From: an uncultured bacterium
GTDB lineage: Bacteria; T1Sed10-126; CAZEBV01
NCBI GenBank assembly: GCA_964510695.1
Contig: CAZEBV010000001.1
Location: forward strand, 1-44,996
DNA length: 44,996 nucleotides
Reading direction: 5' to 3'
In this document: in pieces, positions 2,244 through 39,772 of the stretch
Layout of the letters: every line of letters starts with the position of its first letter
Numbering within the stretch: the stretch's first letter is position 1
The notes under the pieces: model-generated
Seen by the model: the letters and a program-made list of their open reading frames with translations, nothing else
Database searches by the model: none
Told to the model about the DNA's origin: nothing
Translations under genes and position numbers: made by a program

Positions 2244-2257
2244 TTTACGCGCGTAAA
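2244..2257. repeat. Palindrome TTTACGCGCGTAAA, copy 1 (perfect)
   Basis: Lies in the 44-bp gap between the capsid stop (2268) and the next ATG (2223). Confidence 0.8.
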
Positions 2258-2267
2258 CGCGGGCCGA

Positions 2268-3281
2268 TCAGACCCCGTCCATCTGGACGATGGCGTCGGC
2301 GTCGAAGATCCGAAGCCCGGCCGTGGTGATCCGGCTCCTGAGCAGGACGTTGTCGTTGCGCAGGGTCTGCGGATCCAGCATCCGGGCGATGTCGGAGGTG
2401 AGGACGTCGAAGTTGGGCTCCTCGGCGTCCTCGTTCTCGTCGGGGTTCGCGTCCGGGGCGAGCGCCAGGAGCGTGTGCTGCCCGGCGCCGTCCGTGTCCT
2501 CGAGCTGGCTGACGGGGACGACCTGCCCCACGTTCTCCTTGTTTTCGATGATCTCCAGGAGCGTGCGGGTGTCGCCCTGGGTCGGCGCGATCCGGGTGCG
2601 GTTCAGCAGCGCGTACCGGTCGCGGGGAATGCCCAGGTCCCAGGGGGGCATCATGCCGACCTGGTTCTCCAGCTGCTCGACGGCCCGGTCGACGTCCGCG
2701 AGGATGTCCTCGGGGTTGCCGTTGGCCAGCTTCGTGGGCCAGTCGTTGGCGTTCAGGGGGGCGACGGTCTGCGCGTTGCCGGTGGTGGCCAGCCCGGGGA
2801 TCCCGTAGGCGGTCGACCCGAGGAAGATCAGCCGGTCCTCGAACCGGAAGTGCGCCCGGCGCATGACCCGCGTGCCGCGAGTGCGAATCGGCCGGTCGTT
2901 CTCCCGGGCGGCGGCGACCTCCTGGGCCTTCAGCTCGTAGCCCAGCACGCGGTACAGCTGGGCGTTCGTCCGGGGTTCGATGTCCTCCTCCACCTGCATG
3001 AACTCGGTGGCCTGCTCGGCGGTGAACTCGTCGTTCTCCTCGTTCTCCTCGTCGCGGTAGACGCGGTCCACGACCTCGTCGTGCTGGACTTCCTTGGCCC
3101 ACCAGGGCGCGTCGCTGGTGACCGGCACGAGCAGCCGTCCCGTGAGCTCCTCCTCGCGGAAGCTGACCAGCCGGTTCTCCAGGTAACGCAGGTCCTCCTC
3201 GCGCAGCCCGGACGCCGAAGCGTCGGACGTGGCCACGCTGGTGTCACTGGAGCTCAGGTCGATAAGGTTGCGCACGGTCAT
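2268..3281 (-). CDS. Major capsid protein (HK97-fold type)
   Basis: 337 aa. Sits after the scaffold and decoration genes and before the connector genes. Sequence character resembles phage/encapsulin-type capsid proteins. Confidence 0.8.
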   Translation of the reverse strand: MTVRNLIDLSSSDTSVATSDASASGLREEDLRYLENRLVSFREEELTGRLLVPVTSDAPWWAKEVQHDEVVDRVYRDEENEENDEFTAEQATEFMQVEEDIEPRTNAQLYRVLGYELKAQEVAAARENDRPIRTRGTRVMRRAHFRFEDRLIFLGSTAYGIPGLATTGNAQTVAPLNANDWPTKLANGNPEDILADVDRAVEQLENQVGMMPPWDLGIPRDRYALLNRTRIAPTQGDTRTLLEIIENKENVGQVVPVSQLEDTDGAGQHTLLALAPDANPDENEDAEEPNFDVLTSDIARMLDPQTLRNDNVLLRSRITTAGLRIFDADAIVQMDGV

Positions 3282-3318
3282 GGACCTCCCATGTCCAGGG
3301 TCTACCGCGTCTCAGTTA

Positions 3319-3777
3319 TCAGGTCTCCGTGGGCCGCAGCCGGATGGCCCCGTTGTCCTGGGCGCCCCCGGGCGGCACCGCGATCTCGGCGTTCGTCAGA
3401 GCCACCACGGGCGTCGTGGCGGTCGACTCGGGCCGGAACGTGGAGGTGGCGGGGTCGATGACCACGCCCTCACCCTTGGCCCCGTCCTCCTCGAAGGGCA
3501 CGACGGGTTGGCCGAGGCTCCCGGGCCGAAGCACGGGCACGGGGTCGTTCTCGGCGTAGGTGTGAGGCGGCCCGGCGTCCTGGTCGGCCCGCATGCTGTC
3601 CAGGGCGATGCCCACGAACTCCTCACCGGTGTCGTCGAAGACCTCCACCTCGTCCTCGTCGGCGGTGGCTCGCTGGAGGGGATCACCGGCGCTGATTGCT
3701 TCGGCGGCGCGGAACGTGTCGACCTCGGTCTCCGCGCTCTTGTGCAGGTTTCCGAGCATGTGATCCGGAAAAGGCAT
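3319..3777 (-). CDS. Capsid accessory/decoration protein (DUF2190-like)
   Basis: 152 aa, directly upstream of the major capsid gene. Gly/Pro-rich beta-type sequence as in DUF2190 head proteins. Confidence 0.5.
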   Translation of the reverse strand: MPFPDHMLGNLHKSAETEVDTFRAAEAISAGDPLQRATADEDEVEVFDDTGEEFVGIALDSMRADQDAGPPHTYAENDPVPVLRPGSLGQPVVPFEEDGAKGEGVVIDPATSTFRPESTATTPVVALTNAEIAVPPGGAQDNGAIRLRPTET

Positions 3778-3815
3778 CGCTCAGGCCTCCCTGAAAGTGC
3801 GGGCGATCGTCAGCG

Positions 3816-5636
3816 TCACGATCCGACGTGCGCCCGGGGGTTATCCAGCTTCTGTCGCTTCTCCTCGGTGTCCTTTTGCAGGTCCTCGACGTCCTGGACC
3901 TCCTGGACCTCCTCGTCCTCGGTGCCTTCGTCGGGGTCTTCGACTTCCTCACCGTCTTCGTCGGGGGTGTCCCCGGAGGGCACGCCGTCCAGCACCGAAT
4001 CCAGCCGCGCCCGGAGGTAGGTGTCCTCGTCCATGTCCTCGGGGAGCCCGTCGGTGGCTGCCTCGACGTCGACGTCCGCGAGGATCTGAAGGGCGTCCTT
4101 CATGACCTCCTGCAGGGACTTCACGTTCCCCTGCTCGTCGGTGAAGGAGTAGTCCTCCTGCTCCTCCTGGATGGCCATGATGAGCTGGATCTTGAAGTTT
4201 TCGTCCTCCTCGGAGCCGCCTTCCTCGGGGCCCTCCGGCCCGGGCTGTTCCTGGAGCTGTTCCAGCTGATCCTCGATCCCGTCGAGGCGGCCCTGGAGGT
4301 CGCTTCGCTCCTCGCGGAGGTCCTCCAGTTCGGCGTCGGCGCACCGCAGAAGATAGACCGCTCGCTCGATCTCGTCGGAGCACTCCTCGCAGTCGACGTC
4401 GCTGAGGTCGACCTCGTGTTCTTGCCCGTCGATCGTCACGGTCACTTTCACGGCGGCAGCGCCTCCTCGGTCGGTGGTCTCGCTTTTTTCGCCTGGTTCG
4501 CCCCCATTGTCACGCCCTGCAAAATCGGGCGCAATCATATCCGCGATCCTATCCAGGGTGTCCGTGGACTCCCCCTCCTGGTCGGGCAGCATTTCCTCCA
4601 GGCGGGACCGGGACACGCCCAAAGTCTGGGCGATGGCGCTTCGAACCGCGTCCGACGGGATGATGGCCCCGGCCACCTGGGCCCGGACTTCCTCGACGGT
4701 GCGGTTTGACAGCCCCGCGATCGACTCGAGGACCTCCTCGCGGTCCTTTTCCATGTTCTGGATGCGGCTGGTGACGAACTCCCCGAAGGACTGGTCGAGC
4801 ACGGCCTGAAGCTCATCGAGGTCCTCGGGGAGGGCGTCCTCGTTGTTCTCTGAGAAGTGCTCGACCTCCCGCAGCCGCTGGACGGCTTCCTCGCGGGTCT
4901 CGAAGCACCCGAACTCCCGGTCCCCATCCTCGGACACCACGCACCACTCGTCGTCGCGCTCGACGATGCGGTCGTTGACGTTCAGGGCGTCCGTGGCGTC
5001 GATGCCCACCCCCACCACCCGGGCGTCCTGGGTCTCCTCGATCGAGCAGGTGGGCCCGCATCGCCCCTGGTCGACGACGGCCGAGTGCCAGAAACGAAGG
5101 TTGCGCTGGGTGGCCTCGTAGTCCTGACCGCGGAAGGTGCCCGGTTCGTCGTGGATGTCCACCAGGCGGGCCGTCGAAATCTGGGCCCGGCCCTCCTCGA
5201 TCGACTCGGCGAGGCCGGCGTCCGTGATGACCATGGCCGTCGCCAGAGCCGCCACCTCGCCGTAGATGTCGTCCTCCACGGTGACGAGGTAGACCTGCTC
5301 CCCGTTCATGCCCTCCGCGTACTGGTCCACCTGGTCGGCCTGCTCGGCGGTGATGGGGGGGTGTCCGTCCGTGACGGCGGCGCCGGCCAGCGTCGTTCGC
5401 GCGACGTCGCTGGTGAGCTCCTCCCGGGGGACGTGCTCCCACTGCAGGCGGGTCTCCCCGGGCTGCATGTCCTCGGGCGGGTCCACCAGGGCGTCGATGC
5501 CGCGGTTGTAGGGCATCGGCCCCTCTCGAATCTGCACCACCCGCTCGACGACCAGCTCGCCGTCCTCGCGGCGTACGTCCAGCGTCGCGCTTGGCATCCA
5601 GTCGATTCGCACCTGGTCAGACTGCAACGGCACCAC
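3816..5636 (-). CDS. Prohead protease/scaffold fusion (DUF2213-like N-domain plus acidic coiled-coil C-domain)
   Basis: 606 aa. The N-terminal ~200 aa resemble DUF2213 head-maturation proteins. The C-terminal half is acidic coiled coil. Lies between the MuF-like and capsid genes. The exact start (GTG 5636 or TTG 5627) is uncertain. Confidence 0.6.
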   Translation of the reverse strand: MVPLQSDQVRIDWMPSATLDVRREDGELVVERVVQIREGPMPYNRGIDALVDPPEDMQPGETRLQWEHVPREELTSDVARTTLAGAAVTDGHPPITAEQADQVDQYAEGMNGEQVYLVTVEDDIYGEVAALATAMVITDAGLAESIEEGRAQISTARLVDIHDEPGTFRGQDYEATQRNLRFWHSAVVDQGRCGPTCSIEETQDARVVGVGIDATDALNVNDRIVERDDEWCVVSEDGDREFGCFETREEAVQRLREVEHFSENNEDALPEDLDELQAVLDQSFGEFVTSRIQNMEKDREEVLESIAGLSNRTVEEVRAQVAGAIIPSDAVRSAIAQTLGVSRSRLEEMLPDQEGESTDTLDRIADMIAPDFAGRDNGGEPGEKSETTDRGGAAAVKVTVTIDGQEHEVDLSDVDCEECSDEIERAVYLLRCADAELEDLREERSDLQGRLDGIEDQLEQLQEQPGPEGPEEGGSEEDENFKIQLIMAIQEEQEDYSFTDEQGNVKSLQEVMKDALQILADVDVEAATDGLPEDMDEDTYLRARLDSVLDGVPSGDTPDEDGEEVEDPDEGTEDEEVQEVQDVEDLQKDTEEKRQKLDNPRAHVGS

Positions 5637-7955: not shown

Positions 7956-8102
7956 GCCTACTCCCCCAAGTCCGGAGGGTCCGGTGGTCGATCTCACCCC
8001 CGAGGGTGGCGGAAAGGAAGGGCGGGCGCAATCATAGGAGGCGCTCTCGTCAAACTGGCGCACGGCCGGCGGGGTGCGGGGCCTGCGGTCGGGCTGAGCG
8101 GA

Positions 8103-10263: not shown

Positions 10264-10302
10264 GGGCTTACCGGCGGTTCATGGGCTACTCGAGGGATCG
10301 GA

Positions 10303-10500: not shown

Positions 10501-10733
10501 GCCCGGTCACCCTCCTGGAGCCACTCAGGGGGTTCTTGTGCGTAGCATCCGACGGGATCGTGGTTTTTGCAGTCGGGGTTGGCGCAGAACCAGGTGTAGT
10601 CGTAGCCGGCGCCCCGTTGTTCATCGGGGTATAGTCGGGGGGTTTCGACCGCTTCGGTGTGGCCGGTGACGACCGCGGGATAGCCGCAGTTATCACACCA
10701 GCCTTTCAGCCAGGCGTCATCGCTCGTGGCCAC
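10497..10733 (-). CDS. Small Cys-rich (zinc-finger-like) protein
   Basis: CDNCG ... CANPDCKNHDPVGC. GTG start preceded by CTTGGGGAGTAGG and by the palindrome at 10756. Confidence 0.6.
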   Translation of the reverse strand: MATSDDAWLKGWCDNCGYPAVVTGHTEAVETPRLYPDEQRGAGYDYTWFCANPDCKNHDPVGCYAQEPPEWLQEGDRA

Positions 10734-10755
10734 GGCAGCCTACTCCCCAAGCAGG

Positions 10756-10769
10756 TTTACGCGCATAAA
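10756..10769. repeat. Palindrome copy 2, TTTACGCGCATAAA (one mismatch)
   Basis: Abuts the stop codon at 10770. Sits upstream of the small-gene/terminase block. Confidence 0.7.
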
Positions 10770-15265: not shown

Positions 15266-15652
15266 TCAGGCACCACGGTCGGCCTCCTCCTGGGATTTCA
15301 GGGCCGCCACGACCGCGGCCCGTTCTCGAGATTCCGACCAGTGATACGTGCCACCAAAAACGTAGGCGTAGTAGACGTCCCCGAGTTCTGGATCAGGCCT
15401 TTGTTGCCAGCCCCAGCCGTCCCCGTAGCGCCCGGCGGCCGTCTCCAGCACGTCCAGCGCCTTGTCCGCGTCCTCGGTGGGATCGTAGGCCCCCTGCGGG
15501 AAATAGGCCTCGACGCGCTCGCCATCCTCGTATCGCTCCCAACCCAGCACGCCGCCCTCCTCGAAGGGCTCGAAGCCCATGAACTCGGCCGCCCGCCGGT
15601 CCAGGGTCTCGTCGACGACCTCGCGCCAGTCGGTGTCAGGCATGGTCCTCAT
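15266..15652 (-). CDS. Hypothetical protein
   Basis: 128-aa ORF with normal amino-acid composition. Overlaps the upstream gene by 17 nt. Confidence 0.6.
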   Translation of the reverse strand: MRTMPDTDWREVVDETLDRRAAEFMGFEPFEEGGVLGWERYEDGERVEAYFPQGAYDPTEDADKALDVLETAAGRYGDGWGWQQRPDPELGDVYYAYVFGGTYHWSESRERAAVVAALKSQEEADRGA

Positions 15653-16157
15653 CCCCCGACCCCAGCGGCATCCGTCCGGTCTCCAGGATCTCGCCCAGCG
15701 TGGCGGTGCCGTCCGGGGCCAGCATGTAGGGGAGAAGCGGCTGGGAGCCCGGCGCGAGCATCCGGAGGTTGTGCTGGTTCTCCAGGCACTCCCTCACCGT
15801 GTAGAGGGCCTGTTTTCGGGCCTTCTTCCGCTGATTCTCCGAGGGATCCTTCCGGTCCGGGTCGAAGGGCAGGGCCGCGACCGTCAGCTCCCCCGGGTTT
15901 CCGTGGATGGTGAACTCAATCACGTAGCCCTCTCGGGGCGGGTCGAAGGCGTTAAACGTGCCTCGCCGGATGGCCGAGACCACCCCGCCCAGCTTCTCGA
16001 CGGCCCGGCGGATGTCCGCCTTGAGCTGGCTTTCCGTTTTTTTGGTCTCGTGTCCGCGGACCCCGTGCTCCTGGGTGCTGGCCTCGCGGAAGAAGGGCAC
16101 ATCGACGCCGTTGGGGCCGTCCGTCTGCTCATCGTTGGGCTCGAAGCCAAACGCCAT
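15636..16157 (-). CDS. Hypothetical protein (first gene after the parB-adjacent palindrome)
   Basis: 173 aa. GAGAGGAGG SD before ATG 16157. Confidence 0.6.
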   Translation of the reverse strand: MAFGFEPNDEQTDGPNGVDVPFFREASTQEHGVRGHETKKTESQLKADIRRAVEKLGGVVSAIRRGTFNAFDPPREGYVIEFTIHGNPGELTVAALPFDPDRKDPSENQRKKARKQALYTVRECLENQHNLRMLAPGSQPLLPYMLAPDGTATLGEILETGRMPLGSGDEDHA

Positions 16158-16178: not shown

Positions 16179-16196
16179 GATTTACGCGCGTAAATC
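16179..16196. repeat. Palindrome copy 3, an 18-bp perfect GATTTACGCGCGTAAATC
   Basis: Overlaps the parB TGA (16195..16197). Lies 22 nt upstream of ATG 16157. Confidence 0.85.
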
Positions 16197-17778
16197 AAAG
16201 GTGTTCGAGGACGTAGTCGCGGATCGTCTCGTGGTCCTCCGGGTGTTCGGCCGGGGCGTGGTCTGTTTCGGCCACGTCGGGGACGTCCTCCTGACCGGGC
16301 TCGAGCTCTTTCGCCTCGAGGTACTCCGTCCAGTCGCCCCGGGTCGCCTCCAGGGCCGCCTCGTGAATGGAGCGAAGGTCGGCCGCATCCAGGCTCATCG
16401 TGAACAGGGCCCGGACGCTGTCGTTGCGACTCGACAGGCCAAGGGCCGGGCCCCGGAAGGTCAACACGCGGTTCAGCAGCTGCTCGGGGTCGTAGTGCTC
16501 CTCGGCCCATTGGGTCAGGGTCTCGAAGACGGCCTCGGGGTCCTCCCCGTGATTGTTCTGGTTCATGATCGAGAACTTGTTGTAGCCCCTGTCGTTGTCC
16601 TCGGGTTCCCAGCCGATCGCGCCGGCCAGAAGCTCCTCGTAGAGGGGCTTGGTGAAGTGCGTGCTGTCCAGGGCGGCCACCAGCCGCTCCCACAGCGTGA
16701 TGCCGACCTCGCCGACGTTGACCCGATCGGCCAGCACCTCGGCGAAGTGATCCACGTAGTTGCCCTTGATCTTGGTCCGACAGTCGGCCACCCGTTCCGC
16801 GACGGTGCGCTCGGATTGGCCGACGGACTCATCATCGTCGCTGCTCATGTAGTCCTCGTAGAGCTGGCGGGTCTTTTGCCACTCCTGCTCGAGCTCGCCG
16901 TCGAACTGACCCGACTCGAGCATCTTGAACGCCCGCTCGATCCGAAAGGACACAAGCTCATCCGCCTTGATGGCCTCCCGCACTGCGTTGGCCTGCCGGC
17001 GATGCCAGCGCTGGACCTGGTCCGATCGGTCCGCGTTCGTGATCCATTCGTAGTCGGCGACCTCGTGGCGGTGCTCATCCTCGAAGGCCCGGACGTCGTC
17101 GGGGTCGAACAGGATCTCGTGGTCGAAGTCGACCGACTCGAGGGGCATGACCCGCGGATCCTCCACCAGAAACCGCCGGGTGTGCCGATCGAGGATCCGC
17201 GTCGGCACCTCCTCCTCCACGATCGACTCGGCCAGGTCCCCGACCAAATCCTTCCCCAGCGGCACGACCTCGAGCAGTTCCCGGGCGTGGGTCGAGGTCA
17301 GCTTCCCCTCGTTGACCAGCTGCCGGACGCGCCCCGGCAGATCCAGGAGGCTCATCCGCTGGGAGATGTACCCGGGGCTGTAGCCGACCTCCTCGGCGAG
17401 TGCTTCCTGGGTCTCATACCACTCGAGCAGCCCGGAGAGGGACTGCGCCTCCTCGATCGGGGAAAGATCGTCCCGTTCCACGTTCTCCAACAGCGCCAGC
17501 TTCGCGGCTTCCTCGTCGGAGAGGTCCCGCACGGTCGCCGGGACGGCCTCGAGGCCAACGGCGGCCGAAGCTCGGTAGCGACGCTCGCCGGCGACGATCT
17601 GGTACTCGGCGGATCCGTTGGGGGCCGGGCGCACCAGAAGCGGCTGCAGGATCCCGTGCTCCCGGATGCTCTCGACGAGCTCCTCGTGGGCCTGTTCCCC
17701 GAAGTGCTGGCGGGGCTGGTACGGGTTGGGCTCGAGGGCCTCGATCGGGACGTCCTTAATGGTGGTCTCGTTGCTCAT
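16195..17778 (-). CDS. parB: ParB/Spo0J-family protein (CTPase-type N-domain plus HTH) with a ~330-aa unrecognised C-terminal extension
   Basis: Box I LVESIREHGILQPLLVR, Box II GERRYRA, Box III LLENVERDDLSPIEEA, HTH TQEALAEEVGYSPGYISQRMSLLDLP. Stop codon abuts an 18-bp perfect palindrome. Confidence 0.85.
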   Translation of the reverse strand: MSNETTIKDVPIEALEPNPYQPRQHFGEQAHEELVESIREHGILQPLLVRPAPNGSAEYQIVAGERRYRASAAVGLEAVPATVRDLSDEEAAKLALLENVERDDLSPIEEAQSLSGLLEWYETQEALAEEVGYSPGYISQRMSLLDLPGRVRQLVNEGKLTSTHARELLEVVPLGKDLVGDLAESIVEEEVPTRILDRHTRRFLVEDPRVMPLESVDFDHEILFDPDDVRAFEDEHRHEVADYEWITNADRSDQVQRWHRRQANAVREAIKADELVSFRIERAFKMLESGQFDGELEQEWQKTRQLYEDYMSSDDDESVGQSERTVAERVADCRTKIKGNYVDHFAEVLADRVNVGEVGITLWERLVAALDSTHFTKPLYEELLAGAIGWEPEDNDRGYNKFSIMNQNNHGEDPEAVFETLTQWAEEHYDPEQLLNRVLTFRGPALGLSSRNDSVRALFTMSLDAADLRSIHEAALEATRGDWTEYLEAKELEPGQEDVPDVAETDHAPAEHPEDHETIRDYVLEHL

Positions 17779-20347: not shown

Positions 20348-20685
20348 TTCGGCCTCCCATCGGCGTCTTTGGTGTCGATGTGCTCAAACTCGTGGAGCCA
20401 GATTTCCTGATCCGGGACCCATCCTTTACGCGGGTGAATTTCCCGCCAGACCTCGCGGAATTCCTCAGGCGAATCCAGCCCCTCCTCGTGGTAGTGCTCC
20501 TGAGCCACGGTCTCAATCTCACACTTCCGCACGTCGAGCAACCGGACGAAACCAGCCGGTGTCCAGAGGATGTCCCCGGCCTTCCCGTATCGGCTGTTCC
20601 GGCTCGTCATGGTCTTTCGTCCGCTCTGGATCGCGTCGACGAAGCGGTCGTGAAACGGCAGGTCAGGGGGTTCGTGGTCGTCCAT
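20338..20685 (-). CDS. ASCH (PUA-like) domain protein
   Basis: FHDRFVDAIQSGRKTMTSRNSRYGKAGDIL resembles the ASCH N-terminal signature. Confidence 0.6.
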   Translation of the reverse strand: MDDHEPPDLPFHDRFVDAIQSGRKTMTSRNSRYGKAGDILWTPAGFVRLLDVRKCEIETVAQEHYHEEGLDSPEEFREVWREIHPRKGWVPDQEIWLHEFEHIDTKDADGRPKWE

Positions 20686-27078: not shown

Positions 27079-27618
27079 TTAAGCTACGCTTCTCGAACCG
27101 TTCCTACTCCCCAAAGCGGCCTCCTTTTCAGGAGCCGAGCCGGACGTGTCACATTCCGTCACGAGCGAGTCCTTGTAGCGGTGGGTGCCCCGGAAGACGC
27201 CGACCACGTGATCGCCCTCGATCGAGCCCCCGCTTCCGGCACACGACCGGGAGCAGTAGGTGTGTTTGTTGGGCTTGACGAGGTGGGTCTGTCGGCGGCG
27301 TCGGATGAAGATGGCCTCGCAGGAGGGGCACCGAAGCACGGCCCACGTGATGCCCGTGGACTTGTGCTCCCGGCAGTGGACGCTGTCGGTGACGACTTCC
27401 AGGTTCTCGATTCGGTTGTCGGACTTGTCTTCGTTCAGGTGGTGAACATGCTCGTTAGGGCGAAGATAACGGCCTAACTCGGCCTCCATGACCAGGCGGT
27501 GCTCGTAGACGTACCCGCCATGCTTGGAAGCCTGGGGATGGTCGGGGACCTTGCACCGGATGTAGCCGCAACCGTTCGTCGACCGGCCCCGAATGTCCCA
27601 CTTGCCGATGGTGTCCAC
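27079..27618 (-). CDS. HNH endonuclease with a C-terminal Cys cluster
   Basis: VHHLNEDKSDNRIENLE HNH core; CPSCE...CSRSC. GTG start with GGAGGGG SD. First gene after attP. Confidence 0.8.
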   Translation of the reverse strand: MDTIGKWDIRGRSTNGCGYIRCKVPDHPQASKHGGYVYEHRLVMEAELGRYLRPNEHVHHLNEDKSDNRIENLEVVTDSVHCREHKSTGITWAVLRCPSCEAIFIRRRRQTHLVKPNKHTYCSRSCAGSGGSIEGDHVVGVFRGTHRYKDSLVTECDTSGSAPEKEAALGSRNGSRSVA

Positions 27619-27718
27619 CAGGTGCCCCTCCAGGACGGAAGGGCGCTTGAAGGGAAAACGTCAGCGGGGTAGGATTATCCTCCTGATTTCACGAGAAGGA
27701 ACGATCAACACACGGCCG

Positions 27719-27768
27719 TCTCGTTGCCAACGAGAAGGTCGGGGGTTCAAATCCCCTCACCCGCTCCA
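27719..27768 (+). other. attP core: 3' 50 nt of a tRNA-Gly(GCC), from the anticodon stem to CCA
   Basis: TCTCG-TTGCCAA-CGAGA anticodon arm (GCC), AGGTC variable loop, GGGGG-TTCAAAT-CCCCT T-arm, CACCCGC-T-CCA acceptor end. No D-arm or 5' acceptor strand upstream. Integrase lies 450 bp away. Confidence 0.75.
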
Positions 27769-27842: not shown

Positions 27843-27871
27843 TATTATTCCTACCAGAATAGGAATGTCAA
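27843..27871 (-). promoter_or_regulatory. Candidate sigma70-type early promoter with an embedded dyad operator
   Basis: On the - strand: TTGACA (27871..27866), 17 bp, ATAATA (27848..27843). The perfect dyad ATTCCTA-N6-TAGGAAT (27847..27866) fills the spacer. Points toward attP and the HNH/early operon. Confidence 0.45.
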
Positions 27872-28085: not shown

Positions 28086-28118
28086 GAGATTCCTCCCACA
28101 GTGATTTAGGTTGCTCCT

Positions 28119-28147
28119 ATTCTTAACCGAATATCCCTTGACGTCAA
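28119..28147 (-). promoter_or_regulatory. Candidate promoter for the Cro-like gene
   Basis: On the - strand: TTGACG (28147..28142), 17 bp, AAGAAT (or 16 bp, TAAGAA). Shares the palindrome TTGACGTCAA with P-int. Confidence 0.35.
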
Positions 28148-28166: not shown

Positions 28167-28216
28167 CTTTTACGCGCTGTTTTGTGGGGGTTTCCGGGTG
28201 GGACTCGGTGATCGCC

Positions 28217-29338
28217 ATGAAGGGAAGCATCCAGCAGATCGAGCGTAAGACCAAGACCGTCCACCGTGCCCGCATCGACGTCCCGTCGCCGGACGAGGAC
28301 CGAAAGCAGATCAGCAAGACCTTCGACGAGGAGGGGGATGCGACGACGTGGCTGATCCAGAAGAACCACGAGATCAGCACGGGGACGCTGGTGACGCCCT
28401 CCGAGATGTCGATGAAGCAGTACCTCCAGAAGTGGATGGAGGATGAGAGGGACGCGATTCGCCCCAAGACCCACCAGAAGCGCCAGTGGGCCATGAACCA
28501 CATCCTGCCCGCCCTGGGGCACGTGGAGGTCGGGGATCTTACGCCCTACCACCTACAGACGCTTTACCAGGACAGGCTGGAGGACCTCGCGCCCAGCTCG
28601 GTGAAGAACCTGCACGAGATCCTGCACAACGCCCTGCGAAACGCCTGCCGGCTGGAGATCATCGCGGACAACCCGGCGAAGAACGTGTCCCCGCCCGCGA
28701 AGCCGGACCCGGATTTCACGGTCCTCGACGGCGAGCAGATCGAACGCTACCTGTCAGCCGCCCGGGGCCGGCGGTACTACCCCGTGCTTCTGACGCTCGT
28801 GATGACCGGCCTCCGGCGCGGCGAGGCGCTGGGGCTACGGTGGGAGGACGTCTCGCTGGATGAGGCGAGCCTGAGCGTGCGTAAGACGCTGGGGCGCACC
28901 GACGAGGGGCTGGGGTTGGGCGATGTGAAGACCGCCTCCAGCCGGCGCTCTGTGGCGCTCATGGAGGCCAACGTAAAGGCGCTTCGGGACTGGAAACAGC
29001 GCCAGCTTCAGGAGCGTTTGAACCACCCGGACCTGGCCGGGCGCTCCGAGCTGGTCTATACGACCTCGGAGGGTAATCCCGTCCACCCTCGAAGCCTGCT
29101 GAGGTCCCACAACAAGGTCGTCGATCAGGCCGACGTCCCCGACGTCACGATCCACGACCTGCGCCACACGCACGCCACGCAGATGCTCCGGAATGGGACC
29201 CACCCGAAGGTCGTCCAGGAGCGGCTGGGACACTCCCGGATCGAGGTCACGATGGACACCTACAGCCACGTTTTGCCCGGGATGCAGGAGGACGCGGTGG
29301 AGGCGCTTGAACAGTCGATGGGGGCGGATACGGTATGA
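28217..29338 (+). CDS. int: Tyrosine integrase
   Basis: Catalytic-region motifs LLTLVMTGLRRGE, HDLRHTHAT, LGHSRIEVTMDTYSH. Start set at ATG 28217 (MKGSIQQIERK). Confidence 0.9.
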   Translation: MKGSIQQIERKTKTVHRARIDVPSPDEDRKQISKTFDEEGDATTWLIQKNHEISTGTLVTPSEMSMKQYLQKWMEDERDAIRPKTHQKRQWAMNHILPALGHVEVGDLTPYHLQTLYQDRLEDLAPSSVKNLHEILHNALRNACRLEIIADNPAKNVSPPAKPDPDFTVLDGEQIERYLSAARGRRYYPVLLTLVMTGLRRGEALGLRWEDVSLDEASLSVRKTLGRTDEGLGLGDVKTASSRRSVALMEANVKALRDWKQRQLQERLNHPDLAGRSELVYTTSEGNPVHPRSLLRSHNKVVDQADVPDVTIHDLRHTHATQMLRNGTHPKVVQERLGHSRIEVTMDTYSHVLPGMQEDAVEALEQSMGADTV

Positions 29339-29575: not shown

Positions 29576-30034
29576 ATGGCCCTGATCCAGTGTCCGGAGT
29601 GCGGCGAGGACGTCTCGGAGAATGCGGAGGCCTGCCCAAACTGCGGGGAGCCCATTAACGGCGGATCGGATGGGCCAAGTGCCGGCCAGGCCATCGGCGC
29701 CTGCGGATGCATCGTCGCCCTGGCCTGTGCCGGCCTGGTCTTTGTGCTCTGGATGGTTTCTGTGGCCGACCGCGTCGATCTGGGAGCTGACGCCGACGGG
29801 GCCGCGGATGTCTGCCGGCAATTCGTGGACGACTGGTTCAAAGATGGCTACCAGACCTCGTACCCCGACGGGATGGAAGACGATGCTTCGAGAGTGGGGA
29901 AGGGCCGGTACCGTGTTAGCTCATCGGTCGAGGCCGTCACCGAGGGCGGCCGCAGGCTACAGAAACGGTTTGACTGCGTCGTTCAGCACCAAGAAGGCAA
30001 GACCTGGAACCTGGTGGATCTCGACGTAAATTAA
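29576..30034 (+). CDS. Zinc-ribbon / single-TM / extracytoplasmic-domain protein
   Basis: CPECG..CPNCG ribbon, TM AIGACGCIVALACAGLVFVLWMV, then a ~90-aa C-domain. Start at ATG 29576 with GAGGGGGA SD. Confidence 0.7.
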   Translation: MALIQCPECGEDVSENAEACPNCGEPINGGSDGPSAGQAIGACGCIVALACAGLVFVLWMVSVADRVDLGADADGAADVCRQFVDDWFKDGYQTSYPDGMEDDASRVGKGRYRVSSSVEAVTEGGRRLQKRFDCVVQHQEGKTWNLVDLDVN

Positions 30035-30047
30035 GGGGGGCAGAATC

Positions 30048-30452
30048 GTGGAGAACAACGCCGCCGCACTCATAGCGCTCATTTACCTTATGGGCATCTT
30101 CGGGATGTATGTGCTCTTTTCGATCCTCGCCGGGGTCTACTACAGCAGCAAGGAAGGCGCCTTCTGGCGGGCCTTTCTGATCTCGCTGTTGTTCTCGCCG
30201 CTCATCGGGTTCGTCTTTGCCCTGGCATCGGACCCGGTCGATCGGAAACCATGCCCCGCCTGTGCTGAGAAAATCCGGGCGGAGGCCTCGAAGTGCAAAC
30301 ACTGCGGGGAGCAGCTCGAGGCGGCGCCGGCCGAGGAGGAGCCCGAAACGAAGACGCTATCGGAGAGTCAGGCCAGAACCAGCACCGTGGCGATGGTCTT
30401 CTGGGGGGTCGGGGGCGTTATTGTTCTCCTCTTGATCCTGTCGTCTCTCTGA
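30048..30452 (+). CDS. Multi-TM membrane protein with an internal zinc ribbon
   Basis: Two to three N-terminal TM segments, CPACAEKI..CKHCG, and a C-terminal TM. GTG start after GGGGGG. Confidence 0.7.
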   Translation: MENNAAALIALIYLMGIFGMYVLFSILAGVYYSSKEGAFWRAFLISLLFSPLIGFVFALASDPVDRKPCPACAEKIRAEASKCKHCGEQLEAAPAEEEPETKTLSESQARTSTVAMVFWGVGGVIVLLLILSSL

Positions 30453-30504
30453 GGTTAGCCCCTCCGGCACCGATTAAAGGCGACCTCGACGCGCACCTGG
30501 TGGG

Positions 30505-30975
30505 TCATCGGTTCTTGTTGACGCCCTTCCCCTTCTCCCAGCTGCGCATGCCCCCCAGCCCGAGCATCCCGAGCAGGACGGGCATCAGGGTCTCCATCTT
30601 CGGCTGCGGGAGCTGCTCGAGGGGGATCTCCACGCCGCCCACCTTCACAGCGAACAGCAGGAACGGGTACAGGACGGTCCCGTAGGCCAGCGCGGTCCCG
30701 CAGATCCACCCGATCGCCGGCCGCCATCCGGCGATGAACATGGACTCGCTCTTGGCCTCCTGGAGGTTGATGTCCGTTTGGGCCATCGCCTCGGCGTGGG
30801 TCTTGGCGAGTCGCTCGAGCTCCCCCTTCTGGCGAAGCTCGGCCAGCTTCCGCTTCGCCTCGCGCTTGGCCTCCGGATCCTCTGGAAGCACCCGCTCGAG
30901 GACTTCATCCACGGGCCCCCCTTCCCCGACGAACGCCTCCACGACGCCGCCGGTCAGCATGCTGGCGATGTTCAT
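30505..30975 (-). CDS. Holin (3-TM, GTA-release-type family)
   Basis: SMFIAGWRPAIGWICGTALAYGTVLYPFLL signature plus further TM segments. Start at ATG 30975 with GGAGG SD. Confidence 0.6.
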   Translation of the reverse strand: MNIASMLTGGVVEAFVGEGGPVDEVLERVLPEDPEAKREAKRKLAELRQKGELERLAKTHAEAMAQTDINLQEAKSESMFIAGWRPAIGWICGTALAYGTVLYPFLLFAVKVGGVEIPLEQLPQPKMETLMPVLLGMLGLGGMRSWEKGKGVNKNR

Positions 30976-30979
30976 GGCG

Positions 30980-31120
30980 TCAGAACCTCCCCTCCCGGTC
31001 GTTCGGATCAAAGGACTTCATGAACCGATGAAACGCCCAGAGGCCCACGACAACACAGGCCGAGACCATCCCGATCGTCCCCAGCACGATCAGCGTCCAC
31101 TTCACGATCAGATGGACCAT
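30980..31120 (-). CDS. 46-aa single-TM protein (holin partner or spanin-like)
   Basis: MVHLIVKWTLIVLGTIGMVSACVVVGLWAF. GAGGGG SD directly after the palindrome at 31132. Below the ORF-track cut-off. Confidence 0.45.
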   Translation of the reverse strand: MVHLIVKWTLIVLGTIGMVSACVVVGLWAFHRFMKSFDPNDREGRF

Positions 31121-31131
31121 CTGGACCCCTC

Positions 31132-31145
31132 TTTACGCGCGTAAA
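31132..31145. repeat. Palindrome copy 4 (perfect)
   Basis: Lies between the stop at 31146 and the SD of the 46-aa TM gene, upstream of the holin. Confidence 0.8.
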
Positions 31146-31244
31146 TCACTGCCGGAACCGCCGCCAAACCCATCCGAGCCCGAAACTTACCGCGACGGTC
31201 CCGCCGATCAGCCCCCACAGTGGAGGAGGGATTTCTTTCACCAT
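31146..31244 (-). CDS. 32-aa single-TM mini-protein (tentative)
   Basis: MVKEIPPPLWGLIGGTVAVSFGLGWVWRRFRQ. Stop abuts the palindrome. No clear SD. Confidence 0.3.
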   Translation of the reverse strand: MVKEIPPPLWGLIGGTVAVSFGLGWVWRRFRQ

Positions 31245-31290
31245 GCGCCAGGTCGTCGTGGTCTGCAGGTAACCGGGGCGGCGGTCCGGG

Positions 31291-31824
31291 TCAGCCATCC
31301 GTGCCCAGCTCCACGTTGACCACCTGGAGGTCGAACTCGGATCCCGTGATGCGCCCCATGATGCGCTCGTGAGCCTTGCGGGAGTTCCACACGGCCGCCT
31401 CGCCGGTGTCGGGGTGATGTCCGGCCCCCATGCCGGGGGCGATGCACCCAGACAACTCGCTGGGGTAGTTGGCGACGTGAATCAAAATCCAGGTTCGGTC
31501 CTCGACGTCCTCGAGGTGGATGTGGCGGTAGGGGTAGTTCTCGGACTCGCCGGCCGGCCGGATCCGGGCGGGATAGACCCCCCGCGGGATGCAGCTGGCC
31601 ATGCGCTGGTTGTCCTTCCAGGGGTTCTCGATGGTGTGGTAGACGTGGGGGTGCTCACCGGCCAGCCGCGAGGCTCGCTCGAGGGAGCCGGCGGCGTCGG
31701 TGGGCCCGCCGTCCAGGAAGGACAGGGACCGGCCCAGCTGGGGCCCGACGTCCCCGCCAAAAAAGAGCAGGCCCCTCGTATGGGAGGAGCCATACTGATA
31801 CCTCGCAACCGTGATCCGGAGCAT
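31291..31824 (-). CDS. Putative endolysin with a YkuD-like L,D-peptidase fold (DUF5675-like)
   Basis: SCIPRGVY ... ILIHVANYPSELSGCIAPG resembles the H-x-N...S-x-GC active-site motif. Sits upstream of the holin genes. Preceded by two tandem CTTGGGGA(A)GTAGG leaders. Confidence 0.55.
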   Translation of the reverse strand: MLRITVARYQYGSSHTRGLLFFGGDVGPQLGRSLSFLDGGPTDAAGSLERASRLAGEHPHVYHTIENPWKDNQRMASCIPRGVYPARIRPAGESENYPYRHIHLEDVEDRTWILIHVANYPSELSGCIAPGMGAGHHPDTGEAAVWNSRKAHERIMGRITGSEFDLQVVNVELGTDG

Positions 31825-31826
31825 GG

Positions 31827-31862
31827 CCTACTCCCCAAGCAGCAGGTTCCTACTTCCCCAAG
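31827..31862 (-). repeat. Tandem pair of the recurrent leader motif CTTGGGG(A)AGTAGG
   Basis: + strand CCTACTCCCCAAG (31827..31839) and CCTACTTCCCCAAG (31849..31862). Related copies at 7957..7970, 10739..10751, 18455..18469, 20037..20053 and 27103..27116. Confidence 0.6.
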
Positions 31863-31874
31863 CCGGCGGGTGCC

Positions 31875-32303: not shown

Positions 32304-32305
32304 GG

Positions 32306-32740: not shown

Positions 32741-32817
32741 CAGCCGGTCACCTCATACAGGCGAAGCTCTCCTGAAAGCTCGGTGTTTCCAATCGTGCCG
32801 ACCTCGACGCCGCCCAA

Positions 32818-34059: not shown

Positions 34060-34062
34060 CAG

Positions 34063-36336: not shown

Positions 36337-36701
36337 CAGAGGGTCACCTCCTGGGCGAGCACGACTTCCTCATCGTCCACCGTCAGGGCCGAGCCCTCGA
36401 TCGAGACGGCCCGGTTCTCCCGGTCAAACGCCAGGTCGAACTCACCGGTCCGGATCACGGCCGGGTCCGCCTCGACGTTGCGCACGACCTCCGATCGAAG
36501 CAGGTCCAGGTCGGGCGGCTTGACCCCCAGGACCTCCCGGTAGGGGATCCCGATGGACGGGTTGCCCCGCCACTCCTCGAGATGCCACATCAGCACCAGC
36601 CGAAGCCGATGGCGGGTGGCCTCCCGACCGGTGGCTACGTGGGCGTCCTGGTCCTCGTGGACGATGTGTCCGTTTGGATCCAGGAAGATGTCGTGGGCCA
36701 T
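36336..36701 (-). CDS. Baseplate wedge protein, gpW/gp25-like
   Basis: 121 aa directly upstream of baseplate J. GIPYREVLG...LLRSEVVRNVEADPAV pattern. Confidence 0.55.
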   Translation of the reverse strand: MAHDIFLDPNGHIVHEDQDAHVATGREATRHRLRLVLMWHLEEWRGNPSIGIPYREVLGVKPPDLDLLRSEVVRNVEADPAVIRTGEFDLAFDRENRAVSIEGSALTVDDEEVVLAQEVTL

Positions 36702-37843
36702 CAGGATCCCACCCGTGAGACGAGCGTATCGACCAGGTCCTCGCGGGACGTGGCCCGGACCGCGTCCAGGAGGCGCTGGCGTTGGAACTCGTGGCCGGCC
36801 TCCCGGTTCAGATACCGGTCGATCCAGGCGTATCGGGCGTCAAAGACGGCCTCGGTGTCCGAATCGTCGTTAAAATCATTCACAATCTGGTCAATCTCGT
36901 CGATCCTACCCTGCACCTCGGCGTCGGTGGTGTAGGTGACGTCAGTTTCAGCCGTCTCGTCGTAGACGGTCATGGTTTCGTTCGCGGGGTCGGTGAAGTC
37001 CGTGGTCGACCGTTTGTTCTGAAGCTCCTGCTTTTCGGACGTGTCCCCGGGGCCTCGGCTACCGCCCGGGGAATTGAAAAAAAGCACGGTCCCCGAGGAC
37101 GTCGACCAGGTCCCGAACGGGTCGACCCATTGGTCCGTGATCGGGGAGTCCCCGGCATGCGAGCTCGGGTACAGAGCCGTGTCCCCGTCGTCCACCGCCG
37201 CCGTGACGTCCCCGTCCTTCAGCGGGTCCCGGCCGTACGCCAGCCCCACGATCAGGTCGATGTGACGCTCGATGTTCCGGCAGACGGACTCCCCCTCCGA
37301 CCCCGCGTGATGGCCCCGGTACAGGTCCCACACGATGCCGGCCAGCTGATCCAGGCGGGCGGTTCGCTCGTCGAAGCGTTCGTCCTCAATGAGGGCCCGG
37401 TCCAGGTCGGAGCGGGGTTCGCCATACGACGGGAGGCTGGGGTGCGGCTCGAGGTCGCCCACCGTGAGCGGCCGCTCAGCCCGTTCAGAGACCCGATTGT
37501 TCGACCCGTTCTCCACCCAGGCCCGAACGAAGGCGGCCGTCGTGTCGACGTTCGTAAACGTGAGGGTTGCGTCGGTTGACTGGGTGGTCTGCTGATGCAG
37601 CTGGGCGAGGGTCGAGTCCACGATCTCGACGACGACCGTGGTGCCAAAATCCAGGCCGGCCGTGACGGTGACGTCCAGGTCCGCGCCCGACGCGATGGTG
37701 GGGGAGTGGTCGATGTCGACCCGATCGGCCGGCGGGTTCTCGTAAAGGATCCGCATGGCGGCCCGTTCGACCTCGAGGCGATCGGAGCCGACGATCGAGG
37801 CCCCCGACTTCGGGGACACATCGGCCGGCATCAGCAGGGTCAC
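36701..37843 (-). CDS. Baseplate-associated protein of unknown family
   Basis: 380 aa, inserted between the spike and wedge genes with coupled overlaps. Confidence 0.55.
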   Translation of the reverse strand: MTLLMPADVSPKSGASIVGSDRLEVERAAMRILYENPPADRVDIDHSPTIASGADLDVTVTAGLDFGTTVVVEIVDSTLAQLHQQTTQSTDATLTFTNVDTTAAFVRAWVENGSNNRVSERAERPLTVGDLEPHPSLPSYGEPRSDLDRALIEDERFDERTARLDQLAGIVWDLYRGHHAGSEGESVCRNIERHIDLIVGLAYGRDPLKDGDVTAAVDDGDTALYPSSHAGDSPITDQWVDPFGTWSTSSGTVLFFNSPGGSRGPGDTSEKQELQNKRSTTDFTDPANETMTVYDETAETDVTYTTDAEVQGRIDEIDQIVNDFNDDSDTEAVFDARYAWIDRYLNREAGHEFQRQRLLDAVRATSREDLVDTLVSRVGS

Positions 37844-38493
37844 GAGGCTTCCGTCTCCGTGGTGACGTCGGATCCGGTGATGATCTGCTGGTTGGGCGGG
37901 CCGGTCGTCCCGCCCGAATCGCCCGGGTGGGTGTGGCTGTTCAGCGCGTCCTTCACGGATTCCTGCACGAGCGCCTCGAGGGACCCGGAGCCAAGCTCCA
38001 CCCGGTCGGCGTCGATAATGGCGGTGTCGACGTTGACTTCAGCCTCTCCGGAGGGGGCCAGCTGGACGTACTGGTCTGTGCCTTCGATCGCCAGGCAGGC
38101 CGCGGCCGCGCTGCCCCCGACGGACAGGGTCGTGGAGTGATCCACCAGCCCGTGGATGACCACGGCGTCGTCCAGGGCGTGCCGGCGGTTGATTTCGACG
38201 TCCCGGGGCGTCCCGTCGTGCAGCTGAGACTCGAGGGATTCGTCGGAGAACACCAGCAGGACCTCGTCGCCCGTCTGGTAGGGCGGCGTCAGGACGATTC
38301 CGCCGGCCCGGAACGTGGCCACCGGGCAGTCCACGATGATCGGGGCCCGATCGGTCTCATCCCGGGCCAGAAGCTCGACATCCGCCCGCTGGTTGTCCCG
38401 GTCGTAGGCATCAATGCGGGCTGGGCGGACCACGTGCGTCTCCGAGAGCATCGCATGGACGACCTCCCGCACGTCCACGCCGGGCCCGCCCAT
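37840..38493 (-). CDS. Baseplate central spike (gpV / Mu gp45-like)
   Basis: OB-fold-like N-terminus (ARIDAYD...VDCPVATFRAGGIVLTPPYQTGDEVLLVF) and a C-terminal NSHTHPGDSGGTTGPP tip motif. Confidence 0.65.
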   Translation of the reverse strand: MGGPGVDVREVVHAMLSETHVVRPARIDAYDRDNQRADVELLARDETDRAPIIVDCPVATFRAGGIVLTPPYQTGDEVLLVFSDESLESQLHDGTPRDVEINRRHALDDAVVIHGLVDHSTTLSVGGSAAAACLAIEGTDQYVQLAPSGEAEVNVDTAIIDADRVELGSGSLEALVQESVKDALNSHTHPGDSGGTTGPPNQQIITGSDVTTETEAS

Positions 38494-39288
38494 TCAGGCT
38501 ACCTCCCGCAGCTTCGCGGTCGTCTGGAACTCGTCGAGGTCGTGCTTGCCCATAACGGCCCGGAAGGTGCCCTCGACGGAGGGATGGTTCAGCTCGACCC
38601 GGGCGCCGGTCCGGATGGGGTGGGTCAGCACGGAGCGGGCGGTGTAGCCGTCGATCTGGAAGCGCGGGTCGATGCGCTTGGGCACCCCGACCAGCCCGGA
38701 GCCGGGGTTCAGGTAGACCAGCCGGTCGGACGGGGCGTGCTCCTCGTCCTCCACGTGCAGCGTCAGGTTGTCCAGGTAGACCGTGCGGTCCCAGTCCCGG
38801 CCGACCTGCAGAAGCGCCCGAAAGACGGTGGTCGAAAGCGCCAGAGAGGGGTAGTCGGCCTCCCGGGGGAAGCGGATCGTGCCCCCCTCCACGGCCGGCA
38901 CACGATCCAGCAGGTCCTCGACCACCTGGCGGGGGCGCACCTGGCCGCGGTAGGTGCGGGAGACCCGGGTGTCCTGAAGGTCCCGGATCCCCGTGCCGGC
39001 GAGGATGCTGACCGTCCGATCACCTTGGGTCTCGGTGGTCCGGATGGTGCGGATCACGCCCTGGTGGACCACCCCGATGTCGTCCCGGTAGCCGGCCTCG
39101 ACCGTGACGGTGCCCGCCTCGGCCAGCTGGGAGATCACCGAGTCCTTTAGGTTCTGGAGGGTGATGATCGTCAAATCATCGTCCCAGCTTTCGCTGAAGC
39201 GCACGACCCCTCCCATCGTGATCTCGGGGTGGGTCAACTCGACGTCTCCGGCCGACAGACGGATCCTGTGCTGCCACTTCTGGCTCAT
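38494..39288 (-). CDS. Baseplate hub protein (gpD / XkdQ-like)
   Basis: 264 aa, placed between the tape-measure-distal genes and the spike. Confidence 0.55.
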   Translation of the reverse strand: MSQKWQHRIRLSAGDVELTHPEITMGGVVRFSESWDDDLTIITLQNLKDSVISQLAEAGTVTVEAGYRDDIGVVHQGVIRTIRTTETQGDRTVSILAGTGIRDLQDTRVSRTYRGQVRPRQVVEDLLDRVPAVEGGTIRFPREADYPSLALSTTVFRALLQVGRDWDRTVYLDNLTLHVEDEEHAPSDRLVYLNPGSGLVGVPKRIDPRFQIDGYTARSVLTHPIRTGARVELNHPSVEGTFRAVMGKHDLDEFQTTAKLREVA

Positions 39289-39623
39289 TTGGGAAGCACC
39301 TTGACCCGTACGATGCCGTCCCGAAGGTTCGCCTCATTCACGGGCCGGGGTTCGCCGTCCTTCGTGTCCGCCCAGTAGAGGTAGTCGCTCTCGGTGAAGG
39401 AAGCCCCGATCGCCGACCGGTGGCGAAGCGGCAGCCCCCGGAAGACCGGGATGGGCCCCTCCTCGTCGCGGGACCCGGGCCGGAAGACCGACAGCTCGGC
39501 GGTGTCCGAGTGTTTGTTCTCGGAGAGCTCGAAAATTCGGGTCGTCTCCCCGAACAGCCGCTGGCGAAAGCGCACGGGAAACGCGATCCGGGGCGGAAGG
39601 TTCAGCACCGAAACCGTGGCCAT
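39285..39623 (-). CDS. Hypothetical tail/baseplate protein
   Basis: 112 aa with coupled overlaps at both ends. Confidence 0.5.
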   Translation of the reverse strand: MATVSVLNLPPRIAFPVRFRQRLFGETTRIFELSENKHSDTAELSVFRPGSRDEEGPIPVFRGLPLRHRSAIGASFTESDYLYWADTKDGEPRPVNEANLRDGIVRVKVLPK

Positions 39624-39772
39624 CAGTTCATCACCGGCCGGAAGGTCGTGTGGGGAACGTCATCCCAGGGGGCGTCGAGTTTACGCACGTAAACCGTGCG
39701 GGGCGTGTTGCGAAACTCCATAAAGCCATGCCCCTCCCCGCACTGGGCCCGGGCGATGGGAAGGTCCTGCAT
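39623..39772 (-). CDS. Hypothetical 49-aa protein (below the ORF-track cut-off)
   Basis: ATG 39772 and TGA 39623 both form 1-nt TGATG overlaps with their neighbours. GC-rich third codon positions. Confidence 0.5.
   Translation of the reverse strand: MQDLPIARAQCGEGHGFMEFRNTPRTVYVRKLDAPWDDVPHTTFRPVMN
39680..39693. repeat. Palindrome-like copy 5, TTTACGCACGTAAA (one mismatch, inside a small ORF)
   Basis: Lies inside the 49-aa ORF 39623..39772. Confidence 0.4.

Follow-up and report, generated by a model that had tools for sequence, protein, structure and literature searches.

ParB-family cytidine triphosphate (CTP) switches are known mainly from the partition of chromosomes and plasmids, and only a few of them, namely KorB, VirB and Noc, have been re-purposed as regulators. 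Orphan ParB-like genes are also common in phages, as in PHROG families and in Gordonia phages, and their targets are mostly unknown. Bsr-family and chromosomal parS sites share a recognizable format of 14-16 bp, in which two inverted arms meet without a spacer at a central CG and the ends are T-rich (PMC5450999). The parS site of chromosome 2 of Burkholderia cenocepacia has the sequence gTTTATGCGCATAAAc (PMC7022226). KorB of plasmid RK2 is a ParB-family CTPase and global regulator, which operates as a sliding clamp via dispersed OB sites and is able to act at a distance (PMC11790492), and the phage-plasmid N15 carries four dispersed palindromic SopB centromere sites, IR1-IR4, rather than a single array (PMC7205306). 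Here we describe a 14-bp palindrome, TTTACGCGCGTAAA, which recurs in contig CAZEBV010000001.1 from an uncultured bacterium, a stretch of 44,996 nt analysed over its full length and hereafter termed the window. The window represents a tailed phage that encodes an orphan ParB-family protein. We consider the palindrome a probable binding site of a dimeric DNA-binding protein, and the phage ParB is put forward, more tentatively, as the protein that binds it.

A pattern search of the whole window recovered three exact and two one-mismatch copies of the palindrome, reproducing all five copies and their coordinates as listed in an original prediction made from the DNA letters (Table 1). The motif is a perfect, contiguous 7+7 palindrome with the arm TTTACGC, a central CG and T-rich ends, and is the sole palindrome of at least 12 bp that is repeated in the window. 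The one-mismatch copy at 10756 (plus strand TTTACGCGCATAAA, minus strand TTTATGCGCGTAAA) has the variant arm TTTATGC, and that at 39680 (TTTACGCACGTAAA) shows a central C-to-T change on the minus strand. The exact copy at 16181 forms, together with its flanks, a 16-bp palindrome ATTTACGCGCGTAAAT. When up to two mismatches are allowed the window contains six matches, including a borderline two-mismatch copy within an ASCH-domain gene (20425-20438), against a mean of 0.03 and a maximum of 1 in 100 dinucleotide-preserving shuffles. Composition-based estimates at 66% G+C likewise predict only about 4e-5 exact and 2e-3 one-mismatch copies by chance. Taken together, the shuffled control and these estimates imply that the five main copies are non-random, in agreement with the initial claim that the three exact ones are not due to chance. 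Isolated half-sites (TTTACGC/GCGTAAA) show no genome-wide enrichment, with 4 extra occurrences versus about 2.7 expected. The half-site initially reported at 28169 does lie in the int/cro promoter region, and this 9-mer is notable solely through that position.

The placement of the copies relative to genes is also distinctive. Four of the five are intergenic and lie in short gaps between co-directional minus-strand genes, occupying 4 of about 16 such gaps (16-47 nt); if 5-10% of the DNA is assumed to be non-coding, the chance of at least four of five copies falling in gaps is 3e-5 to 5e-4. On the coding strand, a TGA stop codon lies directly 5' of the motif at 10756, 16181 and 31132, and the end of the motif is separated from the next ribosome-binding site by 1-9 nt in all four intergenic copies (8, 7, 6 and 1 nt to GGGAGG, GGGGAG, GAGGAGG and AGGGG, respectively). 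The coding-strand contexts read TGAtcggcccgcg-MOTIF-tctcctccGGGAGGcgacccATG after the capsid gene (2244), TGA-MOTIF-cctgcttGGGGAGtaggctgccGTG before the terminase block (10756), TGA-MOTIF-tcccgaGAGGAGGcggttgcctgATG directly after parB (16181), and TGA-MOTIF-gAGGGGtccagATG before the 46-aa membrane open reading frame (ORF) and the holin gene (31132). These contexts bear out the TGA-adjacent trio and the Shine-Dalgarno spacing of the original prediction, and its labels for the major capsid, large terminase, holin and ParB genes were confirmed. The last copy does lie inside a 49-aa ORF, as had been noted, and this ORF is now seen to look like a genuine gene, with a G+C content at third codon positions (GC3) of 0.80 and TGATG overlaps to both neighbours. 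It is missing from the syntenic relative L045, a phage contig with 40-57% protein identity to the window and the same gene order from the small terminase to the baseplate (21 kb compared), and represents a small insertion in the baseplate module. As a separate observation, an 18-nt leader/ribosome-binding-site segment, (C/G)CTGCTTGGGGAGTAGGC, occurs twice, at 10738-10755(-) ahead of the 78-aa gene at 10733 and at 31826-31843(-) ahead of the DUF5675 gene at 31824, and the palindrome precedes only the first of these.

The candidate binder is the product of the last gene of the early operon, whose stop codon is touched by the exact copy at 16181. A site next to a par gene is the usual cis layout of par cassettes. 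The protein contains the Pfam domains ParB_N (3.7e-34) and HTH_ParB (2.5e-17), the latter being a helix-turn-helix (HTH) of the ParB type, and its first 200 residues match Spo0J, ParB and Noc structures in the PDB with E-values of 4e-44 to 2e-37. It is closer to Spo0J/ParB (E 4e-44) than to the KorB structures (E 5e-17), and retains the CTP motifs GERRYRA and ENVER. Its HTH, in contrast, reads GYSPGYISQRM versus the usual GKSRSHVAN. Upon alignment to Caulobacter ParB and mapping on the positions of Jalal et al. (PMC7383237), the contact residues Q162, G170, S172 and R204 are kept, and four others are changed (K171Y, R173P, N178Q and G201T); position 173 reads base 1 of the half-site and position 201 reads base 6 (PMC7383237). 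All 119 of the 119 nearest ParB homologues keep the G[KR]SR...N pattern, and no other ParB-type HTH with the signature of the window protein was found in IMG/VR. The canonical parS, TGTTTCACGTGAAACA, is absent from the window at up to three mismatches. Given the altered contact residues and the lack of a canonical parS, this ParB, if it is a specific binder, should recognize another sequence. The motif arm TTTACGC has T2, T3, C5 and C7 in common with the parS arm GTTTCAC and differs from it at bases 1, 4 and 6. The palindrome has the general format of ParB sites outlined above, with its three exact and two near copies, one of them beside parB.

The distribution of the 14-mer in other DNA points in the same general direction, namely recognition at the level of DNA. 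Among 2.9 million IMG/VR contigs, the exact 14-mer occurs in 43 stretches, nearly all with a single copy, which is a chance-like level, and only two contigs contain two or more exact copies. In the first of these (L006; 67% G+C), two copies flank a gene for a CI-like XRE protein, and the repeated unit TTGACTTCTnnG-TTTACGCGCGTAAA-CT comprises a TTGACT -35 element, a 16-nt spacer and a TAAACT -10 element. Judged by this arrangement, the palindrome in L006 is clearly predicted to be a DNA operator overlapping two sigma-70 promoters. The second contig (L023/L033; 60% G+C) has a copy after an unrelated HK97-type capsid gene, 7 nt before GGGAGG, a geometry that matches the window site at 2244; another is flanked by a stop codon and an intrinsic terminator, and a third, with one mismatch, lies within a gene. 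Neither contig has detectable protein homology to the window at an E-value of 1e-3 and neither has an acidic proteome, suggesting that a shared host cannot explain the recurrence of the 14-mer. What the occurrences have in common is recognition of the DNA itself. In the whole window proteome, the L006 CI-like protein is closest to the HTH of the ParB (EALAKAVGYTKGGLSQIIS vs EALAEEVGYSPGYISQRMS), with E-values of 8e-4 against the proteome and 3e-5 in the pairwise comparison, a post hoc comparison that is supportive only. A scan for the shared HTH signature returned only L006 in IMG/VR, and three matches in GTDB genomes, one of which is a true HTH (L049). As for the host-genome repeat that the original prediction named as a refuting case, the 17-mer formed by TGA and the motif yielded 42 singletons and no relatives in JGI metagenomes, and a literature search for the motif string found nothing.

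A different palindrome was encountered in an unrelated viral contig (IMGVR_UViG_3300044633_001177), in which L051 2689-9343 and L109 273-286 contain six copies of the chromosome-2 type sequence TTTATGCGCATAAA or near variants. Five of these six (L051 2689, 4589, 5459 and 6990; L109 273) are followed by the unit CTTGCGC...GCTTGCGC, which is missing at the L051 9330 copy, and at L051 4589 and 5459 an ATAAT-type -10 also precedes an ATG. These copies belong to a dispersed operator/promoter system of their own.

Given the above observations, we tentatively favour the interpretation that the five copies are double-stranded DNA sites of a dimeric HTH protein, the most likely one being the phage ParB/KorB-family protein. 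Among the roles initially offered, an operator for a dimeric regulator of the ParB, XRE or RHH type is the best supported, in light of the perfect palindrome, the lack of a shared RNA fold (see below), the operator use in L006 and the ParB-site format. A ParB dimer would recognize the two 7-bp TTTACGC arms and, by analogy with ParB, Noc and KorB, would bind CTP via its N-terminal domain, close into a clamp and spread from each site. It is the last product of the early operon and would form complexes where early genes give way to late ones and where the packaging/head, connector/tail and lysis modules begin. All late genes run in the direction of the early operon and have no recognizable promoters, and such complexes might control or insulate read-through into the late modules, silence them in the lysogen, or organize the late half of the genome. 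Alternatively, they could act positively, as VirB does. This scheme can be likened to KorB at the OB sites of RK2 or SopB at the dispersed centromeres of N15. Its most specific form, in which an orphan ParB-CTPase with a reprogrammed helix would load as a sliding clamp at the five parS-like sites and thereby switch late transcription or insulate it, with neither a ParA nor a role in partition, is considerably more doubtful.

Several observations weigh against the ParB as the binder. The proteins scanned, those of the early region and some of the structural ones, include no ParA-type family, and their sole ATPase is of the AAA_23/SMC type. The lack of a ParA, together with an integrase and a probable attP, makes classical partition unlikely. 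The C-terminal 328 residues of the ParB (16198-17181, minus strand), where dimerization is expected, have no homologue among 5.8 billion proteins, and a single-sequence AlphaFold2 model of this region is all-helical with an unusable mean predicted local distance difference test (pLDDT) score of 41. The true HTH in L049, which shares the signature with L006, has no motif nearby. A general rule coupling an orphan ParB with a repeated palindrome failed in the Gordonia phage Schnabeltier, which encodes an orphan ParB of 505 aa and an integrase but lacks a repeated palindrome. Palindromes of the chromosome-2 type (TTTATGCGCATAAA) lie beside promoters in viral contigs with no ParB detected in the stretches examined. 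The strict placement just 5' of ribosome-binding sites is not required of a clamp-loading site. Finally, the original prediction had suggested looking for the motif at the syntenic junctions of relatives, and here the outcome was negative: in the 21 kb compared, L045 contains neither the motif nor an equivalent repeated palindrome, including at the syntenic junction after the capsid gene. The fragment L046 also has neither the motif nor an analogous repeated palindrome.

Of the other explanations, one retains an operator function and assigns it to an XRE-family repressor, either the 203-aa protein or the 68-aa Cro-like protein, which would act as a roadblock in a long operon and thereby silence or delay the late modules. 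This is akin to the stoperators of cluster A mycobacteriophages, asymmetric 13-mers in 20-30 copies that are oriented with transcription and bound by the immunity repressor (L5 gp71). Both the stoperators and the inverted repeats of Streptomyces phage phiC31 are scattered repressor sites, many of them in gaps between co-directional genes, that silence lytic genes. The location of the window sites in short gaps inside transcribed operons, and of a 9-nt half-site touching the int/cro promoters, would fit such a role. 14-bp palindromes are typical of XRE operators, as in phage 434, and CI and Cro share operators in lambda-type switches. The L006 arrangement, in which the palindrome overlaps the spacer and -10 element of both promoters beside the CI-like XRE gene, speaks for an XRE protein and against the ParB, as does the L006 Cro-like protein, for which the Cro-like protein is the closest in the window (E 3e-4). 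However, the immunity/early-promoter region lacks a full copy of the motif, and the HTH of the L006 CI-like protein is far closer to that of the window ParB than to either window XRE protein (E 8e-4 vs 6.5). The resemblance to stoperators is limited to placement in short gaps between co-directional genes, given that stoperators are asymmetric, orientation-biased and far more numerous than the five perfectly symmetric window sites. Moreover, a different 9-mer, AGAATAGGA, is common to both early promoters, where it occurs in opposite orientations (27856-27864 on the plus strand and 28115-28123 on the minus strand), suggesting that the Cro-like protein binds elsewhere. The Cro-like protein or an immunity regulator may use this 9-mer as an operator, and likewise the inverted repeat TTCCTA-N6-TAGGAA that lies between the -35 and -10 of the 27871 promoter; both are distinct from the 14-mer. 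On the whole, an XRE repressor as the binder appears unlikely. If it is the binder, the sites would constitute a symmetric, stoperator-like system in a very different phage lineage, a result of narrower interest. Another version takes the copies as late-promoter cores or activator sites, one per late unit, with the 3' TAAA(nn) serving as a -10-like element and transcripts starting just 5' of the ribosome-binding site. It draws on the constant geometry at the four window sites and in the unrelated L023, the position of the sites at the heads of functional modules, the lack of any other sigma-70-like promoter in the late region, and the use of TAAACT as a -10 with a TTGACT -35 in L006. Four late promoters with dyad-symmetric activator sites have been described in phages P2 and Mu. 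Nevertheless, the best -35 candidates 16-18 nt upstream of TAAAnn at the window sites have only 0-3 of 6 matches, the -10 candidates lack the conserved final T at four of the five window sites (TAAATC, TAAACC, TAAAGA), and a promoter scan found no sigma-70-like promoter at the sites or anywhere in the late region. The late-promoter element of the original prediction is therefore unsupported in the sigma-70 sense; a -10-only, factor-dependent promoter may be present at the sites. No sigma factor or known late activator was detected in the proteins scanned, transcription driven by a class II activator centred on the motif would begin within the following gene (the start codon of which is conserved in L045), and one copy lies inside an ORF. 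A promoter function is thus somewhat less probable still than an XRE operator.

Explanations that do not invoke protein binding to the palindromic DNA fare worse. The position between a stop codon and a ribosome-binding site would suit an RNA hairpin that modulates translational coupling or the processing or stability of the mRNA, and both variant copies are hairpin-compatible on the sense strand, the C-to-U change giving a G-U pair and the other falling in the loop, although about 40% of random single changes would likewise be compatible. Yet the five site contexts share no RNA fold (z-scores of -1.0 to +1.3), with the motif pairing with itself in the predicted fold of only one of them, and Rfam has no family match at the sites. 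No intrinsic terminator was found at the sites either, terminator-like matches being no commoner than in shuffles. A hairpin does not need a palindromic loop, the L006 motif lies upstream of the inferred transcript start, and the copy at L033:1241 has no following gene. An RNA element is accordingly very improbable. Least probable of all, by a slight further step, is that the copies are linkers or scars of modular exchange, acting as boundary sequences for recombination between phage modules or left behind by inserted cassettes. The module-boundary recombination site proposed in the original prediction has only circumstantial support, in that the sites at 10756, 16181 and 39680 coincide with synteny breaks relative to one distant relative, L045, with the 49-aa ORF being an insertion. 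The presence of the 14-mer after the capsid gene of the unrelated contig L023 and the RecT/YqaJ recombination pair encoded in the window would be in keeping with exchange. The two contigs with at least two exact copies among 2.9 million imply that the 14-mer is not a widespread linker; in addition, 14 bp is very short for recombination, perfect dyad symmetry is unneeded for it, and the post-capsid junction is syntenic in L045, where the motif is missing.

Table 1. Positions of the palindrome copies, the candidate binding proteins and the gene modules of the window
Feature	Position	Strand	Remarks
Exact copy	2244-2257		in 44-nt gap after major capsid gene 2268-3281(-); 8 nt before GGGAGG of gene 1576-2223(-)
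One-mismatch copy	10756-10769		after TGA; heads block of small genes, small terminase and large terminase
Exact copy	16181-16194		abuts TGA of ParB-like gene; 23 nt before ATG of gene 15636-16157(-)
Exact copy	31132-31145		abuts TGA of gene 31146-31298(-); upstream of 46-aa membrane ORF 30980-31120(-) and holin 30505-31011(-)
One-mismatch copy	39680-39693		inside 49-aa ORF 39623-39772(-)
Half-site TTTACGCGC, 9 nt	28169-28177		in divergent integrase/Cro-like promoter region; possible weak site, statistically insecure
Orphan ParB-family protein, 527 aa	16195-17778	-	ParB_N CTPase, ParB-type HTH and ~330-aa C-terminal region; proposed binder
XRE-family HTH protein, 203 aa	18898-19509	-	alternative candidate binder
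Cro-like HTH protein, 68 aa	27879-28085	-	first gene in minus-strand order; alternative candidate binder
Early operon	27618 to 16195	-	ends with XRE, RusA, metallopeptidase and ParB
Putative tail-fibre/virion gene block	between early operon and terminase block	-
Small genes, small and large terminase, portal, capsid	10733 to 2268	-
Connector, sheath, tube, tape measure, baseplate	2223 to 1, then 44996 to ~32800	-
DUF5675 and holin	to 30505	-
Integrase	28184-29338	+

The genome is that of a tailed phage of about 45 kb and 66% G+C, with nearly all genes on the minus strand as seen in the GC3 analysis. Its proteome is very acidic (D+E 17%, K+R 10%), and for this reason a haloarchaeal virus with TATA/B recognition element (BRE) promoters was considered; it was ruled out by the bacterial-type genes and strong sigma-70 promoters. 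These genes include an SLT lytic transglycosylase, DUF5675, a holin, RusA and the RecT/YqaJ pair, and the ParB is about 50% identical to bacterial chromosomal ParBs. Two sigma-70-type early promoters lie on the minus strand, TTGACA-16-AATAAT at 27871 and TTGACG-17-AAGAAT at 28147, scoring 11/12 and 9/12, respectively, in the promoter scan. The lysis and recombination genes, the bacterial-type ParB and the strong sigma-70 promoters speak for a bacterium with a "salt-in" type proteome as the host. On the plus strand, a fragment resembling tRNA-Gly(GCC) (27695-27758) matches model positions 7-64 of the Rfam tRNA family with 24.4 bits. It separates the strong early promoter at 27871 from the HNH gene at 27618, with which the early operon opens, and probably represents the attP core; in that case, integration would sever the early operon from its promoter. 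Two plus-strand ORFs beside the integrase gene (29577-30032 and 30048-30452) code for membrane proteins with a zinc-ribbon CxxC...CxxC pattern and are possibly expressed in the lysogen.

The phage has few sampled relatives. A megablast search with 25 kb of the window against a phage collection gave no match, and the large terminase has only distant matches, at up to 34% identity in INPHARED and one at 40% in IMG/VR. A search of 5.8 billion proteins gave only two homologues of the capsid protein; the run SRR9010616, from which both derive, also contains the window virus itself. Together with the acidic proteome and the bacterial lysis genes and promoters, this pattern suggests that phages of halophilic bacteria include a lineage that has hardly been sampled. 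The relative L045 itself contains an exact 23-nt direct repeat, CGGGAGCTCATCCGGACGTCCCG, at 311-333 and 15566-15588, 15 kb apart.

With a ParB bearing four changed contact residues on one side, and a 14-bp palindrome one transition away from a known centromere on the other, the window offers a defined candidate pair that makes the role of orphan phage ParBs directly testable. Should the pairing hold true, plasmid-style control of the KorB/ParB kind would extend to phage late genes, and a demonstration that phage late transcription is controlled by a ParB clamp would further raise the interest of the system.

When compared with the B. cenocepacia chromosome-2 parS of the Bsr family, GTTTATGCGCATAAAC or, in dyad-anchored form, gTTTATGCGCATAAAc, the motif differs by one symmetric transition, with 6 of 7 arm positions identical, and the arm of that site is the very TTTATGC arm seen in the copy at 10756. 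Each of the two sites is an uninterrupted palindrome that is T-rich at its 5' end, has CG at its centre and occurs in a few copies. The chromosome-2 site is recognized experimentally by an HTH ParB, whereas the binder in the window is a candidate only. The chromosome-2 system also has a ParA partner and drives partition from sites clustered near parAB on the chromid; in contrast, the proteins scanned in the window include no ParA, and the window sites extend over about 37 kb of an integrating phage at module boundaries. A tblastn search of plasmids with the HTH region recovered no Burkholderia-type ParB. The KorB operator OB, TTTAGCGGCTAAA, resembles the motif in its TTTA...TAAA ends, although it is 13 bp long rather than 14. 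The OB sites of RK2 are tied to recognizable promoters, unlike the dispersed window sites with no sigma-70-like promoter at or near them, and KorB works with KorA or TrbA and with the ParA-type IncC, none of which was found in the window. N15 and the window are alike in that a phage genome bears separate palindromic sites, bound in N15 by the ParB-family SopB, and the N15 Sop system reportedly has a role in late gene expression. However, N15 is a linear plasmid prophage with SopA and sites of the form GTGCGACC-NN-GGTCGCAC, whereas the window encodes an integrase and, among the proteins scanned, no ParA. By analogy, a clamp regulator of the kind outlined above would play in a phage the part of KorB or VirB, and would be comparable in concept to the gp45 clamp of T4. 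The system of the window differs from all of these known cases in that an integrating phage encodes an orphan ParB, the recognition helix of this ParB is reprogrammed, the sites number only five, and their placement between stop codons and ribosome-binding sites is unusually regular.

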